Assembly (NCBI GenBank): GCA_964016885.1
Contig: CAXHJY010001022.1
Location: 9,520 to 73,519 of the forward strand
Length of the DNA: 64,000 bases
Reading direction: 5' to 3'
Origin: Eledone cirrhosa
Taxonomy: Eukaryota
Made by a program: the position numbers and the translations under genes. The number at the start of each line of letters is the position of its first letter. The first letter of the stretch is position 1. Positions 30,960 to 60,931 of this stretch are shown piece after piece. The notes under the pieces were generated by a model. That model was given only the letters and a program-made list of their open reading frames with translations. It searched no databases and was not told the DNA's origin.

Positions 30960-33900
30960 CATTGTTGATCATAGATCGACCAACGGTTAAAAATACAGAT
31001 ATCAATATATATATATACAACCCGTATGGGATTGAAAGAACAAAATATAACGACTTAATTTTAAAGGAATTGCGGAAAAATTATAAAAAGGCCCCAAGTG
31101 ATGTTTTATTGGATATTAATAATGATGCATTTGAAATTATCACCATATCTTGGAATAGAGCGGAAAACCGAACCTTTCATACCAAAGCAACCACGGATAA
31201 ATTTTAAAGACCATAAAAGAAATTTCGAGGAGGACCTGCCAGTTAGACTTATAGCACCTTCAAAATCAGATCTTGGAATAATTAGTAAAATTACAATAGA
31301 GAGGATTTTACCAACTCTTAAATTTAGGTCATGGCTAAACCAATCGAAAGGCACTAGTGAAGTCATAGATCGGTTCACTAGTGAAAATAAAAATAATTAT
31401 AAGTTCATTGAAATGGACATAACTAGTTATTATTCCTCGATAACACCTAATCTGTTAAATAAGGCGTTATCATATGTATATAAACATACTGACTTATCTA
31501 GTGATGAGATACATATTATATTAACAGGGCGAACTTTGATTCACTTTAATAATTGTTTTTACGTTAGGCACAAGGCCAGCAAATACCCAGTGCATTACTG
31601 GTACTTTATTTTATCGACACCGTAAGGATGAAAGGCAAAGTTAACCTCGGCGGGATTTGAACTCAGAATGGCAAGGGCCGTAATAATGATCTTTGGAGTA
31701 GATCAGATAGACAGAAGATTGTTGACATTACTATGGGTTCGTCTGATTCGGCGCAAGTTACCGATATTGTGGGAATTTTCATCCTTAACCTGATAAATAG
31801 AAAACTGCCGGAGATTACCGGAGGTTTTTATAGAGATGGCATACTATTTATTTTAGAAAAACATAATAATAGCGAATTAAAAACTGTAAAGAAAGTAATT
31901 ATAGAATTTTTTTTAAATTACGTCCTGAAATTAGAAGTAGAAAATAATAATAAAATAGTTAATTTTTTAGACGTTACTCTTAATTTGAACTCAGGCCTTT
32001 ATTATCCCTTCCATAAACTCAATGAGAATTTAAATTATGTTAGTTTTTATTTTATTCATCCTAAAAGAGTTAAGAATGCAATTGTCAACAGTGTACAGCA
32101 CCGAATGTCCAGGCTATCTGCTAATAGATCCATATTTAATAGTAAGGCTGTATATTATAATGAAGCGTCACATAAAGCTGGATATAACAATAATATTGAG
32201 TATATAGAAAAAAATAATGAAAATAATATTAATTATAATTACACTAATCATAATAAAAACGAATATAAAAACAACTTGCGGAATAAATGGGGGGAAAAAA
32301 TAAGAAATAGGTATGCTCCGCCAGCATCTTTAGCTATTAAAACACAGGTAGCACACTTATTTTTTAAGCTTTGGATAAATGCTTCCCTACGTCACATAAA
32401 TATTACTCTATTTTCAACAGACACACAGTTAAACTTTCTCATTCAAGAACTATGAATATTGCTCAAAATATAGCATAAATAAATAATAAAATTCTTAACT
32501 TGAACCGACATATAATTAGCAATAATAACAATAATAATAACAATACATTAGTTAATGGGAATAACAATAATAGTTTAAATACTAATAATAGTAGAACACC
32601 TGTAAATAATAATGTGAATAGTTTAAGGTCTGGAAATTACATTGAGAAGAAATGTAATTGTAGAAAGCAGTCCGAATGTTCTTTACGAAATAATTGCGTT
32701 GACAAGAATATAGTATATAAATGTACCATTAAGACAAAAAATAGTATATATAACTATATTGGTGCCACTTCATATAAATTTAAGGAACGGCAGTATAATC
32801 ACAGACAGTCTTTTATTAAACCAGATAAGAAATGTTCAACTTCACTTTCGCAATTAATATGGTCTTTAAGGGACAATAATATTAAATATTCCATCTCTTG
32901 GACCAAATTGAAGAATGCTACTGTTTCGCAAATTTTGCAATGTTTGTAATTTCGGTCTCCACTGAAAATTACAAGTTATGACAATTTAATCAACAAAAAA
33001 ATGAATTATTCAGTAGTTGTCACCATAACATTGGTAAAACTTTCCAAGCATTGTACAAGTTTCGAAAAAAATATTGACAATTAATAATTTAATATATATA
33101 TACATGTTTTTGCCTTATTGTGGTAATAATGTATTGTTAGTTATATGTATTAGAATTATTTTATTAAAAGTCTCGTTATCTTATTTTTTTATTAGGACAG
33201 TTCAATATCTAACTAGACATTTTTTATGATATTTGCAATAGATTATTTATGGTGTTCGAGATATCGCGGAATGTGTGAGTAGAGATATGTTATAAATGTT
33301 TGTACATGGTGAATGAGTTATCTTCCTTTTGTTTACATTGTCCGTAAAATGTTCTTCCTTTGGTCTAGCTTGCTGAATATTGGTTTTGAAATATGTAGAT
33401 TAATAATATACAGACTATCATTAAAATGAAACTATATAAATAAGTAAATACAGAAGTAAATATAGCCTTTCAGTAAATTAATGAAATTAACTTTCGTGAG
33501 TAAATGTAACTGCAGTTTAATCCTAGAAATTAAATGAAAATTAAAGAATAGTGAAGATTTTATGAAGAGAATATCATAATTAAATAATTTGAGTAATATA
33601 TGATCTAAATATATTATATGTTTTGATGGTGATTTATGTATGGTATTAGATGTTAATACATATGTAATAATTATTCAAATACGCTTTAACGATTAATTCT
33701 TTTAAAGTTGTAACAAAATATTTATAGAATATCTTACCTTAAAATTAAAAATAATACTGTATAATGAGTTAAATTAAATTATATAAATGTTTAATTAAAT
33801 TATATATGTGATTGCTATAGAAAATAATCTATACTGATTAATTTTGATATGATATAAGTATAATTAGCTAATGCATAATCAAATACTAAAGATATACAAT

Positions 33901-34440: not shown

Positions 34441-34468
<28 letters not shown>

Positions 34469-34509
34469 GAAAATAAAACAAAGAAGCCTTCAATACATCA
34501 AAAGTCTTT

Positions 34510-34554
34510 ATTAGCCAACAATGTTTCGTCCTATTAAGGACTCATCAGGGCAAT
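34510..34554 (-). ncRNA. Minimal hammerhead, family C inverted arm
   Basis: Reverse complement of 36187-36231. Confidence 0.82.
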
Positions 34555-36186
34555 CAAAACCACAAGAAGTACTATCGGCCAATACAAGCCGAAAACTCCG
34601 AAGAATATGGAGTGTACATACACTAAAGTATTGGAAGATTATGGGTAAAAATATATAATAAAAATCACTAAGGAGGTGGATAACATTTTGAACCATATTA
34701 CAAATATAGTCCAAAGCAAAAAAACTAAAGGTGGTTATATAGAGCAGGAATTATAGTACTATATATAATACAATATAATATAATATAATATACTTGTAAC
34801 AATATTAAAATTAAAATTAAAAGGCACAATATACATATGTATATATGTACGCACAAGTACGCACGTATACATATACATCAATACACATTTCCATCATTAA
34901 CAGCACAAATTAAACCTTATTAAGAGTTTAAATATAAATAAGCATAATAGGAATAAAAATAATAATAATACATATATCTAATATACAGTATAACATGAAG
35001 TAATGAAATGATTAAAAGTAAAACATATAATATATAATAAACTATATAATTATATAATATATAATATAATATAATAGATAATCTCCGATTAATTTACACA
35101 AACAATATAGATGTCACAATAATACTATAATAATAATATAATAACATATAATATATAATGGCATGTAAGTTAACAAATCAATTCATGTAGAGTTACAGAG
35201 TAGAGCAGAAAAAAATATATATTGTACAATACCCAAAATTATGATGGTACAAAAATATAAACATCTTACATGATATATAAAATTTAACATATCATAATGG
35301 TACATAAAATCATCGGTAAGTAATAAGGATCAATAGTACAATAACAACTTCAATATGAAATAAAATAATGAACATAATATAATATATAATTACTTATAAT
35401 TAAAAGGTTGGTAAACAGACACATATGTGAATGAGTGAATAAGGGCCAGACAGAAAATACTATGCACAGTAGTATTAATAAATAAATAAATAAAATCAAA
35501 CGGAAATTAAAAAACAAAAACAAAAGTATTTACTTAGGTCTCACATGCAGTTAAGTAAAAACTTAGGAAAAAACCCAGATAAATGACTAGAAAACCCTAT
35601 TTGATAAATTAATATTGAAAATATTTAATATACCTAATAAGGCAATACAATATTAGCTATGGTTTAAGTAATAAAAATTCCTAAACATTAATATTTCACT
35701 ATAAATATATATATAAAGGAATGAAATATTCTACTATCATTTACATGTTATACTGTATATTAGATATACGTATTATTATTATTTTTATTCCTATTATGCT
35801 TATTTATATTTAAACTCTTAATAAGGTTTAATTTGTGCTGTTAATGATGGAAATGTGTATTGATGTATATGTATATGTGCGTACGTGTGCGTACATATAT
35901 ACATATGTATATTGTGCCTTTTAATTTTAATTTTAATATTGTTACAAATATATTATATTATATTATATTGTATTATATATAGTACTATAATTCCCGCTCT
36001 ATATAACCACCTTTAGTTTTTTTGCTTTGGACTATATTTGTAATATGGTTCAAAATGTTATCCACCTCCTTAGTGATTTTTATTATATATTTTTACCCAT
36101 AATCTTCCAATACTTTAGTGTGTGTACACTCCATATTCTTCGGAGTTTTCGGCTTGTATTGGCTGATAGTACTTCTTGTGGTTTTG

Positions 36187-36231
36187 ATTGCCCTGATGAG
36201 TCCTTAATAGGACGAAACATTGTTGGCTAAT
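36187..36231 (+). ncRNA. Minimal hammerhead, family C 5' pLTR
   Basis: attgcc-CTGATGA-gtcct taat aggac-GAA-acattgt-T-ggctaat. Confidence 0.85.
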
Positions 36232-36418
36232 AAAGACTTTTGATATATTGAAGGCTTCTTTGTTTTATTTTCATAATTCTTCGGCTCTGTTTAATTACAT
36301 TGAGCTATACCTTTTACTGTCATTTCTATAATACGAAGAGGGTGTTTAACTCCAACACGCTCCAGTATTTTAATCCTTGTCACTGCTCCCGATTGGTTGA
36401 GCTTCCGCCTATATACTG

Positions 36419-39110
36419 GTGTTTTTGCCTTTATATATATCTGACAGTATGCTAACAAAGAGTTACCTGCCTTTATCTCTGAAGAATATTCCCACCCCCT
36501 CTAAGAATACTTACGAAAAACCATTGATTGCTAGTGGTAACTCCTTCGTAAAAAGGATTAGATGGCGTGCTTTCCACTATGATATTAATAGGAATAGGAA
36601 GGACCCCAGGAATAGAACAAATTTTAATAACTATGGCTTCAAAACTTATATGAGCCCACCACATAATGTTCTATTAGATAATTGTGAAAGTGACTTACTC
36701 TCTCTTGTCAAAAATATTAAGTATAGGCCAAATAATAGACATAGAAATTATAATAAATTTGATAACTTCCAGTCTAGACTTAAAAATATTGTTAAGGGTT
36801 TTAGTGCGAATAAGTCTATTATTGTCCCGGCGGATAAGACTAAGAATCTATACTCTATGGATTACAGTGCTTACCGTGACTTTCTTTATAAGGAGCTGCA
36901 TAGAAATTATAAAAAGACTACGCTAGATAATTTGAACCATATCAATTGTGAGGGTCTTAAAATAGTCTCGGACCTCGGGCTTGATAAGTACACCCAGCCA
37001 TATTACCCTAGAGAACCGAGATTCACTATTAAGGATCATAAGGTAGACTTCATTAGTAACCCCTCTGTTAGACTCATCTGTCCTTCTAAGTCCGATATAG
37101 CCATAATCAGTAAAAAAATCCTTGACCTTATTATACCAGATGTTAGGGATAAAGTTAATTTTAACCTATGGGGGAACACTAAGGAAGTTATACATTGGTT
37201 CTCTGGGATTAATAAACTTGAATCTAATAAGTTTATCCAGTTCGATATTGATGTCTACTACACATCGATTTCACCCATCCTCCTCAATAAAGCCTTAATG
37301 TTGGCCATGACAGTGTCCAGCCTTACACGATCACAGGTAGATATTATACTAGCAGCCCGTAGAACTATTATTAATTTTGAGGACACATCTTGGACCCGTA
37401 AAAACACGCCCAACAATTTCTACGTTACAATGGGTTCGAGTGATTCGGGCCAGGTAACTGATCTTGTTGGGTTGTTCCTCCTAAATGAACTATATGTTAC
37501 CTTTCCGCACTTTAATGGCGGACTATATCGTGATGATGCATTGTTCGTAATTAACTCTAGCACCAACAATGTAGAACATAATAAGAAGAAGCTTTATAAG
37601 TTTATTTAAAAGCTATAACCTTTCGATCACGATAGATAGAAACGATAGAGCGGTCAACTTTTTAGATGTGACTTTGGACTTGGTCACTAATAGTTTTAAA
37701 CCCTTCTATAAGCCTAATGAAATACTTTCTTATGTTAGTCCGAATTCTAACCACCCCAAATCTATCATAAGCTCTATAATTAAGAGTGTATCTAATAGGA
37801 TTTCCACACTCTCTAAGGACGTAGGAATATTTAATGAACATGCGGAGTACTATAATAATTCCCTAGCTAATTCCGGTTACTCTAGTAAAATACATAATAA
37901 TAATAGTAACCTTAGAAATTCTCCGCTTACTTATAATAATAATAACATAATATCCCATAACATGGCCATGAATGGGAGTAGGAAGCATAATAATCGTAGA
38001 AATTACATAGGTGTATCTGAACCCATCCATAAGTTAACCCACCGGACTCGTAATAGGGAATCAAGTCGAACCCTCTGAGCGCTCACTCATTGGTGATGAT
38101 TTTGCTAGATCTAATTCTAATAATGTTGTTTCTACTGATCCTATTATTGGCCCTAATCCTTTTGATAGGATTCCAGACAGCAGCAGATCTACTAGAGGTA
38201 GAAACATTAAGAGATATAATGGAATTTTGGCTGATTCTAATAATGCGGTTTTAACTAATCCTTGTAATAACCCTATCTTAATAATGGGATATTAGATAAT
38301 GGTAGAGTCGGAAAGGATAAAAATAGAAGGAGACTAAATACTTATTTTAACCCGCCATATAATCAGGAAGTATTAACTAATATCCCTAGGTCTTTCTTTT
38401 CTATCTTAGAGAAACATTTCACCCCTTCTCATAAATACCATAGTATTTTTAATAAAAATGTTATTAAACTTTCATTCTCTACCACCCCTAATATTAGTTC
38501 TCATTTAGCTAGCACTAACAATAGGAAAATTAGGGATGGATACTCCTCTCTACATACTACTAGTCTGAACAGATCTGGAAATGCCTTACCACCAGAGCAG
38601 ACCTTATCTAATAGTAATCCTACGTTTAATGCATCACTACTTCAGCCAATCAATAGCACCCGGAAGTGTAACTGTAGAGTGAGTGCTAACTGCCCTTTAA
38701 ACGGTAACTGCCTCTCTAAGAACATCGTCTATGCTTGCGTAGTTATAACTAATTCCTCTAATAGAACTTATATAGGCTCTACATCTAACACTAGGTTTAA
38801 TTCTCATATCTCTAATTTCAAACATGTTAAGTTTAAGAATTCTATTTCTTTAGCACCCTATATCTGGGATCTTAAGGGGGCTAATATACCATATAGCCTT
38901 AATTGGCGTTTAGATGCACGCTCTAATAACCTTTCTACACATACTAAATTGTGTAATCTCTGTATCCTCGAGACACACTCTATAATGTTCTCTAGTGAAT
39001 CCTTACTTAATAGAAAGTCTGAGATATTCTCTTCTTGCCCCCACGCTATTTCTAATTCTTACTTATATTATAAAACTAAAGGTTCTAGTAGTGTAAATTG
39101 TATCCATTAG
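36419..39110 (+). pseudogene. PLE RT-GIY-YIG ORF with frameshifts/stops
   Basis: ADKT, FIQFDID, MGSSDSGQ, LYRDDA, CPLNGNC, TYIGST, CNLCILE, SCPH. Confidence 0.92.
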
Positions 39111-40780
39111 CTGATATATTCCATTACTTATTTTTTTTAGTTTAGGTTCTTTTTGTTTACCACCATTATTATCATCATTATTATCATTGGTTTTTGACAA
39201 CTTTTTATTCTAGCTCTCATAATCTTTTGGCTACTATACCATATCTATCTTCTTACACATTAAATTTTCACTATTAACACCTTATGAGTATATATCTGAT
39301 TATATATTTGATATTATTTTATTTTATTTCATTTTATTTTATTTTATTTGGATTCTTCTTTGGGTAACCCCTCTCCTCCCCCCCCCCATGCACACATAAA
39401 CTTATTGCCAACCCCTTCAGATATATTATGATTATATTTAATCTCCCCCTCTTTTATGCTCCTTTCTATTATATAATACAGTATATTGATTATGATTTTA
39501 AGCTCCTTTGTATCCTGGATACATTTCTTTTTTTCTGTCCCTATTAGCCTACCATAATTCTGCTTAAGTCAGTTTTTTAGATATCGTTATGTAAATGATA
39601 GTAGAATATTTCATTCCTTTATATATATATTTATAGTGAAATATTAATGTTTAGGAATTTTTATTACTTAAACCATAGCTAATATTGTATTGCCTTATTA
39701 GGTATATTAAATATTTTCAATATTAATTTATCAAATAGGGTTTTCTAGTCATTTATCTGGGGTTTTTCCTAAGTTTTTACTTAACTGCATGTGAGACCTA
39801 AGTAAATACTTTTGTTTTTGTTTTTTAATTTCCGGTTGATTTTATTTATTTATTTATTAATACTACTGTGCATAGTATTTTCTGTCTGGCCCTTATTCAC
39901 TCATTCACATATGTGTCTGTTTACCAACCTTGTAATTATAAGTAATTATATATTATATTATGTTCATTATTTTATTTTATATTGAAGTTGTTATTGTACT
40001 ATTGATCCTTATTACTTACCGATGATTTTATGTACCATTATGATATGTTAAATTTTATATATCATGTAAGATGTTTATATTTTTGTACCATCATAATTTT
40101 GGGTATTGTACAATATATATTTTTTTCTGCTCTACTCTGTAACTCTACATGAATTGATTTGTTAACTTACATGCCATTATATATTATATGTTATTATATT
40201 ATTATTATAGTATTATTGTGACATCTATATTGTTTGTGTAAATTAATCGGAGATTATCTATTATATTATATTATATATTATATAATTATATAGTTTATTA
40301 TATATTATATGTTTTACTTTTAATCATTTCATTACTTCATGTTATACTGTATATTAGATATATGTATTATTATTATTTTTATTCCTATTATGCTTATTTA
40401 TATTTAAACTCTTAATAAGGTTTAATTTGTGCTGGTAATGATGGAAATGTGTATTGATGTATATGTATACGTGCGTACTTGTGCGTACATATATACATAT
40501 GTATATTGTGCCTTTTAATTTTAATTTTAATATTGTTACAAGTATATTATATTATATTATATTGTATTATATATAGTACTATAATTCCTGCTCTATATAA
40601 CCACCTTTAGTTTTTTTGCTTTGGACTATATTTGTAATATGGTTCAAAATGTTATCCACCTCCTTAGTGATTTTTATTATATATTTTTACCCATAATCTT
40701 CCAATACTTTAGTGTATGTACACTCCATATTCTTCGGAGTTTTCGGCTTGTATTGGCCGATAGTACTTCTTGTGGTTTTG

Positions 40781-40825
40781 ATTGCCCTGATGAGTCCTTA
40801 ATAGGACGAAACATTGTTGGCTAAT
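40781..40825 (+). ncRNA. Minimal hammerhead, family C 3' pLTR
   Basis: Identical to 36187-36231. Confidence 0.85.
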
Positions 40826-40968
40826 AAAGACTTTTGATGTATTGAAGGCTTCTTTGTTTTATTTTCATAATTCTTCGGCTCTGTTTAATTACATTGAGCT
40901 ATACCTTTTACTGTCATTTTTATAAAACGAAGAGGGTGTTTAACTCCAACACGCTCCAGTATTTTAAT

Positions 40969-41009
<41 letters not shown>

Positions 41010-50819: not shown

Positions 50820-51172
50820 TTAAACAATTAAGTTAAAAATGTACATCTACATATGCATACTGAAATACTAGTGTGTATATGAATACAAACACGTATACAT
50901 ATGTAGGTGTACCAAGTCTTTCACTGGTCGCTTTACAGTGAGCGGCCCAGCTATTCTGTATGTAAACACACAGACAAACCGGTTTTTAGAGTCACACTGG
51001 TTTTTCGGGGGAACACCTTCCCCCTATTCTCCAGAAAGCCAGACAAGGAATATTGACCTAGTTTCGTTGTTGTTACAACTCATCAGCAATGTTTACCTAT
51101 CTACCGGCCTTTCTGGAGAATTGTAAAAGCACATATCGTTATATGCTTTTTCTATGAAAATTAGTAGTGGGC

Positions 51173-51228
<56 letters not shown>

Positions 51229-51705
51229 AAATAACGAAACGAAATTAAATTTCGTTTCGTTTGTAACTCACTTTTGTATGACTGACGCTTAAACAATTAA
51301 GTTAAAAATGTACATCTACATATGCATACTGAAATACTAGTGTGTATATGAATACACACACGTATACATATGTAGGTGTACCAAGTCTTTCACTGGTCGC
51401 TTTACAGTGAGCGGCCCAGCTATTCTGTATGTAAACACACGGACAAACCGGTTTTTAGAGTCACACTGGTTTTTCGGGGGACACCTTCCCCCTATTCACC
51501 AGAAAGCCAGACAAGGAATATTGAACTAGTTTCGTTGTTGTTACAACTCATCAGCAATATTTACCTATCTACCGGCCTTTCTGGAGAATTGTAAAAGCAC
51601 ATATCGTTATATGCTTTTTCTATGAAAATTAGTAGTGGGCAGACTAATTTGCATAGAGTGTGAGTACGCACCGGTTCAGCGGAGACGATAAAAAACAAAT
51701 AACAT
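50820..51705 (-). repeat. Inverted arm (~2 units) of the 469-bp hammerhead satellite (family 2)
   Basis: Reverse-complement units. HHR cores at 51080-51086 and 51548-51554. Confidence 0.92.
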
Positions 51706-51709
51706 AATA

Positions 51710-54115
51710 ATGTGTGTATTCATATACACACTAGTATTTCAGTATGCATATGTAGATGTACATTTTTAACTTAATTGTTTAAGCGTCAGTCATACAAAAG
51801 TGAGTTACAAACGAAACGAAATTTAATTTCGTTTCGTTATTTGTTTTTTATCGTCTCCGCTGAACCGGTGCGTACTCACACTCTATGCAAATTAGTCTGC
51901 CCACTACTAATTTTCATAGAAAAAGCATATAACGATATGTACTTTTACAATTCTCCAGAAAGGCCGGTAGATAGGTAAATATTGCTGATGAGTTGTAACA
52001 ACAACGAAACTAGGTCAATATTCCTTGTCTGGCTTTCTGGAGAATAGGGGGAAGGTGTTCCCCCGAAAAACCAGTGTGACTCTAAAAACCGGTTTGTCTG
52101 TGTGTTTACATACAGAATAGCTGGGCCGCTCACTGTAAAGCGACCAGTGAAAGACTTGGTACACCTACATATGTATACGTGTGTGTATTCATATACACAC
52201 TAGTATTTCAGTATGCATATGTAGATGTACATTTTTAACTTAATTGTTTAAGCGTCAGTCATACAAAAGTGAGTTACAAACGAAACGAAATTTAATTTCG
52301 TTTCGTTATTTGTTTTTTATCGTCTCCGCTGAACCGGTGCGTACTCACATTCTATGCAAATTAGTCTGCCCACTACTAATTTTCATAGAAAAAGCATATA
52401 ACGATGTGTGCTTTTACAATTCTCCAGAAAGGCCGGTAGATAGGTAAATATTGCTGATGAGTTGTAACAACAACGAAACTAGTTCAATATTCCTTGTCTG
52501 GCTTTCTGGTGAATAGGGGGAAGGTGTTCCCCCGAAAAACCAGTGTGACTCTAAAAACCGGTTTGTCTGTGTGTTTACATACAGAATAGCTGGGCCGCTC
52601 ACTGTAAAGCGACCAGTGAAAGACTTGGTACACCTACATATGTATACGTGTGTGTATTCATATACACACTAGTATTTCAGTATGCATATGTAGATGTACA
52701 TTTTTAACTTAATTGTTTAAGCGTCAGTCATACAAAAGTGAGTTACAAACGAAACGAAATTTAATTTCGTTTCGTTATTTGTTTTTTATCGTCTCCGCTG
52801 AACCGGTGCATACTCACATTCTATTCAAATTAGTCTGCCCACTACTAATTTTCATAGAAAAAGCATATAACGATATGTGCTTTTACAATTCTCCAGAAAG
52901 GCCGGTAGATAGGTAAATATTGCTGATGAGTTGTAACAACAACGAAACTAGTTCAATATTCCTTGTCTGGCTTTCTGGAGAATAGGGCTAAGGTGTTCCC
53001 CCGAAAAAACAGTGTGACTCTAAAAACCGGTTTGTCTGTGTGTTTACATACAGAATAGCTGGGCCGCTCACTGTAAAGCGACCAGTGAAAGACTTGGTAC
53101 ACCTACATATGTATACGTGTGTGTATTCATATACACACTAGTATTTCAGTATGCATATGTAGATGTACATTTTTAACTTAATTGTTTAAGCGTCAGTCAT
53201 ACAAAAGTGAGTTACAAACGAAACGAAATTTAATTTCGTTTCGTTATTTGTTTTTTATCGTCTCCGCTGAACCGGTGCGTACTCACACTCTATGCAAATT
53301 AGTCTGCCCACTACTAATTTTCATAGAAAAAGCATATAACGATATGTGCTTTTACAATTCTCCAGAAAGGCCGGTAGATAGGTAAATATTGCTGATGAGT
53401 TGTAACAACAACGAAACTAGTTCAATATTCCTTGTCTGGCTTTCTGGAGAATAGGGGGAAGGTGTTCCCCCGAAAAACCAATGTGACTCTAAAAACCGGT
53501 TTGTCTGTGTGTTTACATACAGAATAGCTGGGCCGCTCACTGTAAAGCGACCAGTGAAAGACTTGGTACACCTACATATGTATACGTGTGTGTATTCATA
53601 TACACACTAGTATTTCAGTATGCATATGTAGATGTACATTTTTAACTTAATTGTTTAAGCGTCAGTCATACAAAAGTGAGTTACAAACGAAACGAAATTT
53701 AATTTCGTTTCGTTATTTGTTTTTTATCGTCTCCGCTGAACCGGTGCGTACTCACACTCTATGCAAATTAGTCTGCCCACTACTGATTTTCATAGAAAAA
53801 GCATATAACGATATGTGCTTTTACAATTCTCCAGAAAGGCCGGTAGATAGGTAAATATTGCTGATGAGTTGTAACAACAACGAAACTAGTTCAATATTCC
53901 TTGTCTGGCTTTCTGGAGAATAGGGGGAAGGTGTTCCCCCGAAAAACCAGTGTGACTCTAAAAACCGGTTTGTCTGTGTGTTTACATACAGAATAGCTGG
54001 GCCGCTCACTGTAAAGCGACCAGTGAAAGACTTGGTACACCTACATATGTATACGTGTGTGTATTCATATACACACTAGTATTTCAGTATGCATATGTAG
54101 ATGTACATTTTTAAC

Positions 54116-54120
<5 letters not shown>
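51710..54120 (+). repeat. Tandem array of 469-bp hammerhead-containing units (retrozyme-like family 2), ~5.1 units
   Basis: HHR cores at 51985, 52454, 52923, 53392, 53861. First octamer at 51885. Confidence 0.95.
52447..52491 (+). ncRNA. Type I hammerhead ribozyme (representative; also at +469, +938, +1407)
   Basis: aatattg-CTGATGA-gttgt aaca acaac-GAA-actagt-T-caatatt. Stem I is extended by agg/cct and ccagaaag/ctttctgg. Confidence 0.9.
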
Positions 54121-54170
<50 letters not shown>

Positions 54171-54197: not shown

Positions 54198-57100
54198 GGG
54201 TATGACATTAAACTACATCCAGTGGCAAGGCTCCAGTTCGGGAGTTCAGGGGATGTGGGGAATGTGGAGTCACCCCTTAGTTGTCATGACTCCCAGGTCT
54301 GCCCTGGCCCGGGGTGGTAGTACCTGTTAGGGCTCCGTTTATGGGTTAAATAACTACCTTATTCGAGTGGCGCCGGTAAGGTATTGTCAGCCATCGAAAA
54401 GAAATATGGAGAGTCGATCTAACAGCACTAGGGTTAGAGCCCCTAATTATACTGTCAAGGACCAGCCTGGTCGTTATGACTCTGCTGGCTTACAGCCACA
54501 GAGAGGGCCAGTGGATGATGGATCAGCTGTCTCTGAGACAAATATAAAGAATGCAGTTTTGTCCTGCAGAAGAGCCATCAAAATGGGCACTTTGAATGTG
54601 AGGACTATTCGAACGCTGGAGAAGAGAGAGGAGTTGGGACATCTGTTCGAAGAGAGTGGTATACAGATACTTGCGATCCAAGAACACAGGATTCTACACG
54701 ATGAGCCCGTGAGGAGTGTGATGATCGGGAGGAAGAGCCAGCTCATCACTACATCGGCATCGAAGAACACAACAAATGCTGCAGTAGGAGGAGTGGGTTT
54801 TGTGTTCAGTGCAAAAACCAATCTGTTGGTGAGGGAAATAATGCCTATCTCCCCGCGAGTGTTGAGGGTGACCTTCAATGGAAACCCAAGACTGACAGTC
54901 ATCTCAGGCTATAGTCCAACCGGGGGGGACAGTGATGTGAATGCCGAGGAGTTACATGAGGCGGTGTGTAGAGCTGTCAACACCACTTAGGCACACAATA
55001 TCCTGCTTGTTTTGGGGGACTTCAATGCACATCTGAGTAAGGAGGGCAGTGAAGATCCTTGCTGGTACTTCCATAACAACACCAACCGAAATGAAAGACT
55101 ACTGAGAGACACCCTGCTGGAGGCGAACTTGATGGCGACCAACCTAAGGTTTAGGAAGAATCTGGGGAAGATGTGGTCCTACATCTCAGATATGCACCTG
55201 TCCATGTCCCAGATTGATTTCATTCTGGTGAGGAAAAAGTGGCGGTATAGTGTTCTGAACACGGAACCATACAGCTATTTCAGTACACTGGGTAGTGACC
55301 ACCGACTTGTTATGAGTGAGGTCCGCGTGAGCTTAAGAAAGAGCAAGGCTCAGCCCCGGAGAACAATCTATGACTGGGGAGCTTTCAAGGAAGATGATAA
55401 GCTACAGGAGATGTTCACAGTGGAAGTGAGAAACAGGTTTAGTGCTCTGTGTGGAGAGTCAGAGGAGAGAGAGATTGGATGGACTGAGGAGAGTGTGACG
55501 AGGAGGTACGGGCACTTCACGAATGCAGTGGCGAAAGCAAGTGAAACCCTGGTGCCGAGGAAAAAGAACAAAGGGAAGCACGTCAGCTCTGCAAACCCAA
55601 AAGTGTGTGCAGCCAGAGAACACCTGAAAGCTGCCAGGGGCCAATTCTATGCTGATCCTACGGAGGAGAGGATGGAAACTGTGGAGGTGATGGGGGAAGA
55701 GCTCTGTACCGCTTACACTGAGATCAGAGATGAGGCACTGATAGAGAAGCTCAGAAGTGTGGAGAGAGCGGTTGACAGATCTGGATGTAAGGAGAGCTGG
55801 ATGATCATCAACGAGATCACAGGGAGGAAGAAAAGGTGTTCGAGTCAGATCCAGGGAACGGGACCCGAGGATAGGAAGAGGAAATAGCTAGACCATTTTA
55901 GGACCCTACTAGGAGAGCCACCCTCCACAGCCCAGAGCATTGGGGAGATCAGGCGGCTGTTTGAGGAACTGGATGTTGAGACAGAGCACTTCACCAGAGA
56001 GGAGCTTCAGAGAGCCAAGAAGAAGATCAAGGAGGGCAAGGCTCATGGAGAGGATGGAGTGGCATCAGATGTGATGAAGAGGTGTGATTTTGATGATATC
56101 ATCCTGGGGTTCTGTAACGGGGCACTGGAGAAAGGAGTTGCCCCGAATCAGTGGAGGATCAGTAACATCGTCCCAGTGCCAAAGAAGGGAGATCTCTCTA
56201 ACACCAAAAACTACCGGGGGATCTCACTGACGTCACTTGTGGCAAAGACCCTCAACAGGATGATTCTTAACAGGATCCAGCCTGAGATGGAGAAGAAGCT
56301 CAGGGACAACCAGAACGGCTTCAGAGAGGGTAGATCAACCACCAGTCACATCCTGATGCTGAGGAGGATATTAGAGGGAGCTAGAGCAAAGTGCCTTCCT
56401 GCGGTCATGGTTTTCATTGACTTTAGGAAGGCCTTTAATTCTGTGGACCGTTACTGTCTGATGAAGATGTTACAGGCTTATGGAATCCCCAAGAAGATAG
56501 TGGACCTAATATCACTGCTCTACACCAACACCAAAGCCCAAGTCATTACAGCTGATAGGATGACAGAGTTCTTTGAGATACTGGCTGGATTGCTCCAAGG
56601 AGATGCATTGGCTCCCTACCTTTTTATCATTGTAGTGGACTATTGTATGCGCCTTGCACTGGAGAAACACCAGGACTCTGGCTTTACTGTAGCACCGGCT
56701 CAGAACAGGAGAGTTAGGGCGAAAAAGGTATCGGATGCTGAATTTGCCGACGACATAGTTTTGGTGACAAATACAGAGAAGGAGGCAGAGGATTTGATGC
56801 GGGAGGATGAGACTGTGTCGATGAGTGTGGGGCTGAGAATGAATGAGACAAAAACAAAATATCTGGTAGAGAATGTTGAGAAGCCAGAGGGGATCACTAC
56901 TGTAGGCGGGAAGCCGCTGGAATTGGTTGAGGACTTCCTGTATTTGGGAGCAAAGATTGGGAATACGGAAGATGATGTGGTTGAGAGGAAGAGCAAGGCC
57001 AGGGCGGCGTGTCACAGCTTGAGATCGGTGTGGAAGTCGGACCTTCGTAGAGACCTGAAAATCCGCCTCTTCATTGCTGTAGTGGAGTCTGTGCTGCTGT

Positions 57101-57510
57101 ATGGGTCTGAGACTTGGACACTGACCAAGACACTCACTCAGATGGTGGATGGGTGCTACACGAGAATGCTGAGGATGGCTCTGAACATTAATCAGTATAC
57201 ACTGAGGATGAAAAACTCAGAGCTGTATGGGAGCATCCCAAAAGTCAGCTCAAAAGTGACACAGAGGAGACTGAGGTTGGCTGGACATGCACACCGACAT
57301 CCAGAGTTGAGATTGCACTCAGTGCTCCTTTGGGAGCCCCTACATGGACACACTAGAAGAGGACGACCAAGGTTAACATATGTTGATGCCCTAAGGACAG
57401 ACACTGGTCTGTTGGAGATGCAGGATATGGCAGCGATAATGAGGGACAGAGACCGCTGGAGAGAAATCGTCCATGGATCTCGGGAATTTTACCCGCCTTA
57501 GATAGATTAG

Positions 57511-59099: not shown

Positions 59100-60931
59100 C
59101 TAGTCTACCCCCCCCCCCCCCCCCGGGTCATTATGGGGTTTGAGGGCGAGGTAAGTCCTACGCAATCTATGTTTACATGCAGTGACCAGTTCATCTTTCT
59201 TGTTTAGGAGTTGGTCCGTCGAAACCAGCATTGGTAAAGTTTCCTCCGAGCATAAATTGCACGGACGGCGTCCTCCCGTGTAAGAATTGGCTCTGGACAG
59301 TAATCTCCAAGTGAGATCATAGGTGATGTTGTTGTCCTTGAGGTCCCATATGTGGCCCGAAAGTGTAGTGGCGTGACGCCGGGCCGGGTTTCGGAAGGTA
59401 TGTCTATGTTGGTATAGCCGGGTCTTGAAGTCACATGCGGTAAGTCCTATATAGGCTTTGTTGGAGGTATCCGTCCTCACGTTGCACTGGTGGATCACAT
59501 TACGGTCTCTGCATCTATTGTCGAGTGGGCAAATAGAACTATCCGGGCAGTTACACCTCCTGGTCGGTTCTCCACTGCTATTTAGGTTATTTCTGCCATC
59601 GGGGTTGAGTTTTTTGTTGTTAGAGGAGACGATGTTTTGTGCGAAGTTTGGTGTAGTGCTGTAAGAGAGTTTGATGGTATTTTTGTTAATTATGTTGTGG
59701 TAGCGGTGTTGTAATGGGAAGTGTTTTTCAATGAGCCTAAAGAATAGTTTCCCGATGGGAGTTGTCACCTCTGCGTTGTGGGGAGGATTGAACCATGTTA
59801 CATTGCGTGAGCGGCGGTGTCTACTGCTGGTTCCGCTAATGGGAGCTGGACAGTAGGATATTTCCTCCCGGAAACCACCCCGCTTGAGGGCCTGGTTGTA
59901 ATAAGGCGCATGTTCATCGAATATCCGCTCATTAGCTGACAAACGGGATATGTGGAGGGAGATGTTTTTGACCAGGTTGTTTGTGATGTTCCTAGGATGG
60001 TTTGATCGGCGGTGGATGTAGTGCATATTGTCATTAGGTTTCCTGTATGGGTAGTACAGGTCGTTTTCGAGGTCGAGGGTCACGTCCAGGAAGTTTACTC
60101 GGGTCAGGGACGTTTGTAGGGTTATTTTAAATCCCCAGTCGCGGAAGAATCTGATTAATTGTTTCCGGACACGATCTGTACTACTGGGGTTGTACCCTTT
60201 AAGGGTAAGGAGCCCATCATCACGGTACAATCCACCACCGAATGCAGGAAACATATCAGTGAGTTTGGCTATTAGGAATAATCCTATAAGATCTGTGACC
60301 TCCGCCGAATCCGTGGCGCCCATGCTGACGTCGAAGGGTGAGTCGGGAGCTCTTTTTATCCATTTAGAGTCGTCAAAGAGTAATACTGTCTTCCTGGCGT
60401 GGAGGATGATTTTTCTTTCCTGGTCGGTGATGGGCACAAGTGTTTCGGCGAAGTCCAAGGCGGCAGTAAGTAGCGGTAAGGTGATTGAAGCATAGTAGCT
60501 CTCTATGTCGAACTGTATGAATTTAGTTTCTCGTTTATCCTCCATATTGCTGAACCAGGAGATTACTTCCTGGGTGTTGACCATAGGCTAAGTCGGGTGT
60601 GTTGCTTGACTTTTGGTATCACGCGGTCTAGGATTTTTTTGCTGATTCTCCCTATGTCGGACTTCGTTGGGTTAATAAGCCTGATAGAGGGTTTACGGTC
60701 AAAATCGGATTTATGGTCCTTCAGTGTGAAGTATGGTGTCCGTGGGTCTAGAGGTTCCGTGCGGTCGGCGACCCCGAGGCTGGAGGTGATTTGTTGTCCA
60801 TCTCGATTTATGTCCTCGATGCAAGAGTGGTTGGCCTTTTTATAGGTGGAGTTTAGGCTGCTCCTGATCAGTGTGTGGTATCTGTCAGGGTTGACAAAGT
60901 ATAGGTTCCCAGTTTTATCCGAATGCACCAT
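59100..60931 (-). pseudogene. PLE RT-GIY-YIG ORF, 1-nt frameshift at ~60582, N-terminus missing
   Basis: SDKT, LYRDDG, CNCPDSSICPLDNRC, AYIGLT, CNLCSEE, CKH. Copy 1 has GGG where this copy has GG. Confidence 0.92.

Follow-up and report, generated by a model that had tools for sequence, protein, structure and literature searches.

A candidate snRNA-type promoter module in hammerhead retrozyme repeats of Eledone cirrhosa

Among the tandem repeats that carry hammerhead ribozymes, newt satellite 2 is reported to be transcribed by Pol II from an internal snRNA-type promoter (PMC2220036; Coats, Zhang and Epstein 1994), and an internal Pol III promoter is reported for the Schistosoma SM-alpha satellite, which also has a hammerhead (PMC2220036). 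The preliminary description of the present DNA had used the newt repeat as its precedent, in agreement with what PMC2220036 says of it. As to metazoan retrozymes, they seem to have neither a promoter nor a motif pointing to their mobiliser, according to a 2020 review (PMC7761336). Meanwhile, high levels of circular RNA from animal retrozymes have been reported for every tissue tested. In Penelope-like elements, the pLTR signature consists of partial tandems, an inverted 5' copy and a tail at one end (PMC8557442), and the inverted copy plus tail has been traced to two internal RT start sites (PMC11167929).

The window studied here (the whole stretch of DNA that was analysed, 64,000 nucleotides) contains two families of hammerhead repeats, F1 and F2, whose sequences fit the non-LTR retrozymes of PMC7229834. 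Unlike the picture given in PMC7761336, they show a promoter-like module and Penelope-type ends. We propose, with a probability of roughly 0.7, that this module is an snRNA-type promoter present in every retrozyme unit, with a Pol II start just upstream of the ribozyme.

The F1 and F2 repeats and their insertions

The F2 array (51711..54121, plus strand) consists of 5.1 copies of a 469-bp unit and ends in a (TA)n tract. The inverted F2 arms (50820..51703, minus strand), a 5' inversion of the Penelope type, are split by (TA)23 at 51177-51222 and contain an intact module at 51654 (minus strand). The F1 array (14386..16866, plus strand) has a 442-bp unit, an inverted arm at 14280-14385 and (TA)n at its end, and it is broken at about 16114-16305 by an unrelated short repeat of about 195 bp. 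In addition, an extra F1-type copy followed by (TA)n lies at the window start (41..290, plus strand). Neither the F2 array nor the F1 units contain an ORF of at least 120 aa. Homology between the two families extends over the full unit (255 of 480 aligned columns identical), so their modules are not independent occurrences. A first look at the 3.0-Gb host genome gave about 2213 candidates for F1 and about 993 for F2, and the best genome copies were 96-97% and 98-99% identical, respectively. Directly after the F2 (TA)n tract there is a LINE-type element (54331-57501) with endonuclease-like and RVT_1 frames in pieces, which is presumably RTE-like.

The F2 units include a type I hammerhead (51967..52038, plus strand) with the palindrome ACUAGU at stem III and a GUU cleavage triplet, and this first copy has GGU in place of GUU. 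The Rfam model RF02275 matched the first copy with E 4e-6 and four other units with 1.2e-7, under the gathering score; at the gathering threshold, Rfam gave no matches in the window. The type I hammerhead of F1 (14634..14677, plus strand), with CUGACGA, the ACUAGU palindrome and a GUA triplet, was recognised by eye, and its core had no Rfam hammerhead match at E<=10. In both families the palindrome ACUAGU takes the place of helix III; from what is established for amphibian and Penelope hammerheads, F1 and F2 would cleave themselves as dimers. Stem II of F1 (14648-14661) has a U-U pair at its base, like the axolotl HHR_Amex2 of PMC7229834. Monomers cut at successive hammerhead cleavage sites and folded as predicted circles were 62% (F1) and 68% (F2) paired, with z of -6.2 and -9.9 (40 shuffles). 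Furthermore, F2 is covered by contigs of four sequencing runs of unspecified kind, with a very high summed depth in one of them, and such contigs include the (AT)n junction at 51848; a circle and a tandem look alike in them. None of the sequencing runs listed was recorded as RNA.

Insertions were examined at 24 loci of F2 and 27 of F1; of 30 loci for each family, 6 and 3, respectively, had been left out as duplicates, as cut by an edge or as the window's own. We found two back-to-back arms with their 3' ends outward at 19 of the 24 F2 loci and 20 of the 27 F1 loci, and these two-armed loci almost always had one long and one short end (17/19 and 19/20). A (TA)n tract lay on at least one side at 23/24 F2 and 25/27 F1 loci, and the arms consisted of unit sequence only. 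By analogy, these two-armed, tailed insertions are the inverted-copy-plus-tail signature of Penelope-like elements. The Penelope-type pLTR of the window has the same end architecture; the comparison gave neither an end sequence in common nor an autonomous partner. In F2, the tail (51776..51848, plus strand) is the part between the short (~51776/51781) and the long (51848) insertion ends, and it holds the AACGAAACGAAATTT hairpin and a T6 run.

A broken Penelope-like element was found at 34464-40971, with inverted terminal copies, AATAAA after the ribozyme and (TA)n ends; its pLTR hammerheads lie at 36193, 40787 and 34548 (minus strand). Further RT/GIY-YIG fragments lie at 8227-10582, 31065-32949 and 59100-60587. 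The RT-like ORFs of the window had no Pfam or PDB match except a weak GIY-YIG (E 2e-4), and we take them to be Penelope-like from known motifs and the observed end structure. F1 and F2 were also considered as pLTRs of an autonomous element, and this was rejected because no fixed ORF neighbour was found (140 loci, 1.5-kb flanks); the Penelope ORF matches near these loci had no fixed position.

The module and the host snRNA promoters

Of all blocks in the alignment of F1 with F2, the module is conserved best (34-35 identical columns out of 45, versus 28 out of 45 for the ribozyme), which goes beyond the preliminary description, where it was ranked best outside the ribozyme. In F2, it begins with the 12-mer TATGCAAATTAG (51884..51895), which is also found at -78 to -67 of the host U6 gene L002, and CTATGCAAATTAG of F2 is the same as in this gene. 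The 12-mer is repeated at 52353, 53291 and 53760. It is followed by the PSE-core position, CCACTA, at octamer +16 (51901..51906), by TAATTTTCATA, which is complementary to the octamer block and found in F1/F2 only (51908..51918), by a TATA-like box, CATATA, 25 bp past the core position (51926..51931), and by the predicted transcription start AGAAAGG at octamer +72 (51957..51963), all on the plus strand. Meanwhile, the F1 module (14552..14600, plus strand) has TATGCAAATTAG at 14552, the core TCAGCC at 14569, TAATTTTCATA at 14577 and TATATA at 14595, with a predicted start at 14625 (plus strand). Because host Pol II genes start 55-58 nt past the core, the start is predicted at octamer +71 to +74.

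The strings given earlier for both arrays were found in their places, and only one base differed: at 14553, as at 16521, the spacer before TATATA reads aggagag and not aggaaag, which occurs in the F1 copies at 41, 14995, 15437 and 15879. The distances of 88 (F1) and 100 (F2) between octamer and hammerhead core were also confirmed, in 6/6 window copies of each family. From the octamer to AGAAAG there are 72 in both families, though the octamer-to-ribozyme distance differs by 12. Nine of the ten plus-strand matches of ATGCAAAT in the window lie within F1/F2 modules; on the minus strand, one lies in a module and one (24292) is unrelated. In some window copies the octamer is mutated (15879, ~52822-52823).

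In the host U6, U6atac and RNase MRP genes, ATG(C/G)(A/T)AAT(T/G)AG lies at -76 to -78 and TATA at -30. Among the 20 U6 loci fetched, the octamer block was in place at 13, displaced by an insertion at 5 and absent from 2, and those with the block represent three independent loci or clusters. It was also found in the single MRP locus and, of the 8 U6atac loci fetched, in the top-scoring one only, and we infer that the octamer-less U6atac loci are retrocopies. In one U6 cluster copy (L007), a relative (88%) of the ~195-bp repeat that interrupts the F1 array is inserted between octamer and gene, and four other U6 copies share this displacement. In the host U1, U2 and U5 genes, all of 13 distinct promoters (taken from 12, 12 and 8 loci) show YCAGT at -55 to -58, followed at 25-28 bp by a TATA-like box, and U12, which was held out of the matrices, fits as well (CCAGC at -58, TATA 27 later). 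The proximal octamer was absent from the U1, U2, U5 and U12 promoters examined; at -77, it was confined to Pol III genes among the host snRNA loci examined. In addition to YCAGT at -56 and the TATA-like box near -30, the host Pol II snRNA genes have a 3' box resembling AAAAWCAGAYT and, upstream, AATTAA near -90.

When the module was set beside the host U1/U2/U6 upstream elements, the octamer block proved to match the proximal element of U6, U6atac and MRP, and the core and TATA spacing that follow it were of the U1/U2 type. The distance from octamer +16 to TATA is 30-32 bp in the host Pol III genes, 26 in F1 and 25 in F2, and that from the octamer itself is 42 (F1) and 41 (F2) versus 46-48 bp in host promoters of Pol III type 3. 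No host gene examined had the exact combination of the module, the U6-type TATA being 5 bp further away. In F1, TCAGCC stands exactly at octamer +16 and its core scores +4.9 bits. The F2 core CCACTA is degenerate: with the host Pol II core matrix it reaches -2.8 bits, less than background, and therefore the Pol II call for F2 rests on spacing and homology. The joint Pol II score for core plus TATA gave p 0.0002 for F1 and 0.006 for F2, with host matrices made from few and AT-rich promoters. A host-type 3' box was not found in the units, whose best scores were 4.0 and 6.4 bits (p 0.68 and 0.31) versus 8.7-16.8 in host genes. The conserved TGTTT(A/G)CA was ruled out as a 3' box by the same scoring. 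Judged by its letters, the module is a chimera of a U6-type octamer with a core and spacing of the U1/U2 type, and no copy of a U1/U2 promoter. Of the preliminary proposal of an internal snRNA-type promoter, the DNA side is thus well supported, with a match to the host proximal element and with U1/U2-type core and TATA spacing. The same description had presented TAATTTTCATA as a conserved box, which it is not: only F1/F2 have it, and what is conserved is the YCAG core within the spacer that had been written in lower case.

A search with the octamer block and hammerhead core, excluding the F1/F2 spacer, gave 459 matches versus 1 in the reversed control. Families were sorted by eye from 50 loci among the first 100 of these matches: F1 variants, F1b, F3, F5, F6 and F7 have short spacing, F4 and F8 have long spacing, and 3 loci fall outside. 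With TAATTTTCATA kept and the next base changed, the pattern gave 50 matches, which were F1/F2 variants only. The TATA-like box lies 25-28 bp past +16 in 11/11 short-spacing representatives, at 30-31 in F4 (4/4; 46-47 from the octamer) and at 34 in one of three F8 loci, the other two having none. With F1 and F2, seven related short-spacing families thus retain the octamer, the core and the TATA-like box. The joint Pol II score beat shuffles in 9/9 short-spacing representatives tested (p<=0.006), and gave p 0.06-1.0 for five host Pol III promoters, 0.62 for F4 and 0.26 for F8; the family p-values are not independent, because the octamer was part of the search pattern, the +16 offset was chosen once the alignment had been viewed, and ancestry is shared. 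The core of F5a scores -5.2 bits against the host Pol II matrix, and ATCAGTCACT is common to F3 and the host U2 gene L052. Over 11 representatives (54% mean identity), the octamer, the core CA, the TATA box and the hammerhead core are nearly the only invariant columns; the octamer of F3-F8 is invariant by search design, and the core and TATA were outside the search pattern. The geometry of F4 and F8 suggests a polymerase switch within the clade.

Several other features of these families were observed. F4 (L149, L173, L186, L188 and others) and F8 (L176-L178) are old and diverged, with the same octamer, U6-type spacing and a U6-like core, and F4 shows partial tandems ending in (TA)n. F3 (L159, L163, L172, L191) has, ahead of its main octamer, 3-4 tandem octamer/core-like units of ~35 bp, which resemble a multiplied enhancer. 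In all short-spacing families, the TATA-like box lies within a predicted RNA hairpin with differing stems (51920-51946 and 14590-14605 in the window; F3, F5, F6, F7). In all short-spacing families checked, the long insertion end is directly followed on its 3' side by a small hairpin (51849-51884, 14516-14552; F3, F5, F6, F7); F4 lacks this hairpin, which is a candidate RT-binding signal in the others. An octamer-independent search with RF00163 gave only Penelope-type pLTR hammerheads (30 of 74 loci fetched).

On this evidence, an internal snRNA-type promoter for one polymerase or the other is quite probable. In the proposed cycle, a POU factor and SNAPc would bind the module, and Pol II would initiate at AGAAAGG, just 5' of the ribozyme, and would read through the array into multimers. 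Paired hammerheads would then release monomers of 442 and 469 nt, which would circularise, and a Penelope-like RT would copy the circles into (TA)n, starting at two internal sites. Since the monomer includes the promoter, each new insertion of a full unit would carry its own. The F2 monomer has T-runs of T5, T6, T4 and T4, and F1 has T4 only; those of F2 (T5/T6/T4) would stop Pol III, and the T4 runs of F1 would be a weak barrier. T-runs without a host-type 3' box fit Pol II read-through into multimers. More tentatively, at slightly less than even odds, the whole retrozyme clade may have captured host snRNA promoters as a chimera without the 3' box, so that each unit is self-transcribing; the geometry may have switched between Pol II and Pol III (F4/F8 versus F1-F3 and F5-F7), the promoter letters may double as arms of an RNA hairpin, and a Penelope RT may copy the circles. 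If true, this would fill two gaps in the account of animal retrozymes, their promoter and their mobiliser.

Other readings of the module

The module could instead be read by Pol III as a compressed U6-type promoter, with short transcripts ending at T-runs. The octamer block is indeed found only in host Pol III genes, F4 and F8 have true U6 spacing, and in F2 the long insertion end falls on a T6 run that follows a hairpin. However, the homologous insertion end of F1 has T3 only, the TATA box is 5 bp closer than in 5/5 host Pol III promoters and is in register with the Pol II genes, and inserted whole tandem units, promoter included, need a template that crosses the T5/T6 runs, so we consider transcription by Pol III quite unlikely. 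It is also conceivable that a captured snRNA promoter survives in the module as a relic, through common descent, and that transcription of the arrays depends entirely on read-through from their neighbours. Such read-through was proposed in PMC7761336, all families are homologous, and octamers are mutated in the window copies at 15879 and ~52823. Nevertheless, hardly any columns are invariant beyond the octamer (which was searched for), the core CA, TATA and the hammerhead core, and the genome-wide identity of 98-99% among F2 copies indicates a recently active lineage with the module intact; mere descent is thus very improbable.

The preliminary description had offered an RNA hairpin, perhaps an RT-recognition signal, as its second hypothesis. 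In a rival reading of this kind, the module would mainly be a hairpin to which the Penelope-like RT binds, the match to the octamer being incidental or secondary. The hairpin itself is predicted, with 9/10 pairs in F1, F1b and F2 and 8/10 in F5a and F6b (p<0.01 against shuffles in every case). In F2 it has a local z of -3.6, with P>=0.87 for 9/10 pairs in the predicted circle. The distance from the long insertion end to the hairpin, which lies on its 3' side, is 36-37 nt; the anole Penelope RT depends on ~55 nt of sequence 3' of its start site (PMC11167929). However, the local fold of F1 is weak (z only -0.5), only 5-7 of 10 pairs form in F3, F4, F6a, F7 and F8, and partner and register change between families, TAATTTTCAT not being kept; in F3, F4 and F6b the octamer pairs upstream instead. 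The C-U mismatch, which had been described as kept, is present in F1 and F2 but turns into C-G in F1b and C-A in F5/F6. Compensatory change amounts to one two-sided replacement, U-A to G-C at pair 9 in F5/F6. Furthermore, the first 8 letters of the 5' arm never vary in the sequences examined, which is partly search design, the untranscribed promoter of the host U6 gene L001 also reaches 9/10 pairs (p 0.027), and the match to host promoter geometry would be left unexplained. A mainly RNA role therefore appears unlikely, and the hairpin hypothesis is weaker than that of a promoter. The octamer hairpin is best seen as a by-product of general RNA self-pairing around letters fixed by a DNA function, and its role as an RT signal is unsupported; a second, RT-binding role is kept in view because the hairpin starts 36-37 nt 3' of the long end. 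Its identity as a SECIS or IRE was ruled out by inspection against the known consensus.

Comparison with known systems

F1 and F2 resemble the metazoan non-LTR retrozymes, as PMC7229834 and PMC7761336 present them, in their ORF-less tandem units, type I hammerhead with short helix III, highly self-paired predicted circles and coexistence with Penelope-like elements, and their units of 442 and 469 nt exceed the 170-400 nt reported there. With the tailed Penelope pLTRs they share partial tandems, the inverted 5' copy, a tail at one end ascribed to two RT starts and (TA)n or AT-rich targets, but they have no ORF and their tail is ~57-72 nt versus 30-40 (PMC8557442, PMC11167929). In addition, the Penelope-type pLTR hammerheads of the host genome lack the octamer of F1/F2: it was found in 0/30 autonomous-type loci and not in the window's own. 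The two-armed, tailed insertions are direct genomic evidence for the Penelope partnership that was only proposed in PMC7229834.

The two host promoter classes are like those of insects (PSEA-PSEB versus PSEA-TATA), which share one SNAPc site and have the downstream box nearer in Pol II genes (PMC1761439). They differ from the insect classes, as far as these have been described, in that the host has a TATA-like box in both classes and the proximal octamer in the Pol III class only. In insects, the spacing from PSEA to the downstream box is 8 bp (Pol II) versus 12 bp. The Schistosoma SM-alpha satellite is similar to F1/F2 as a hammerhead satellite with an internal promoter, which is a predicted one in our case. 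The SM-alpha promoter consists of tRNA-type A/B boxes.

In the literature, where subscription papers were mostly beyond reach, we found no description of such a module in invertebrate retrozymes or outside amphibians. A housekeeping snRNA-type promoter in each unit would explain constitutive retrozyme expression, and the repeats would then likely be self-transcribing rather than dependent on neighbours, as current models assume. The promoter reading also gives base-level predictions of the start site, the polymerase and silencing mutations. The closest likeness is to newt satellite 2, a tandem hammerhead repeat with an internal snRNA-type promoter, and the promoter of F1/F2 is predicted from sequence. 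The newt repeat is amphibian and ~330 bp long, whereas several families occur here in another animal genome; moreover, elements of host Pol III and Pol II snRNA genes are combined here, and there are sister families with U6 spacing. The promoter reading would thus carry the finding on newt satellite 2 over to another lineage.
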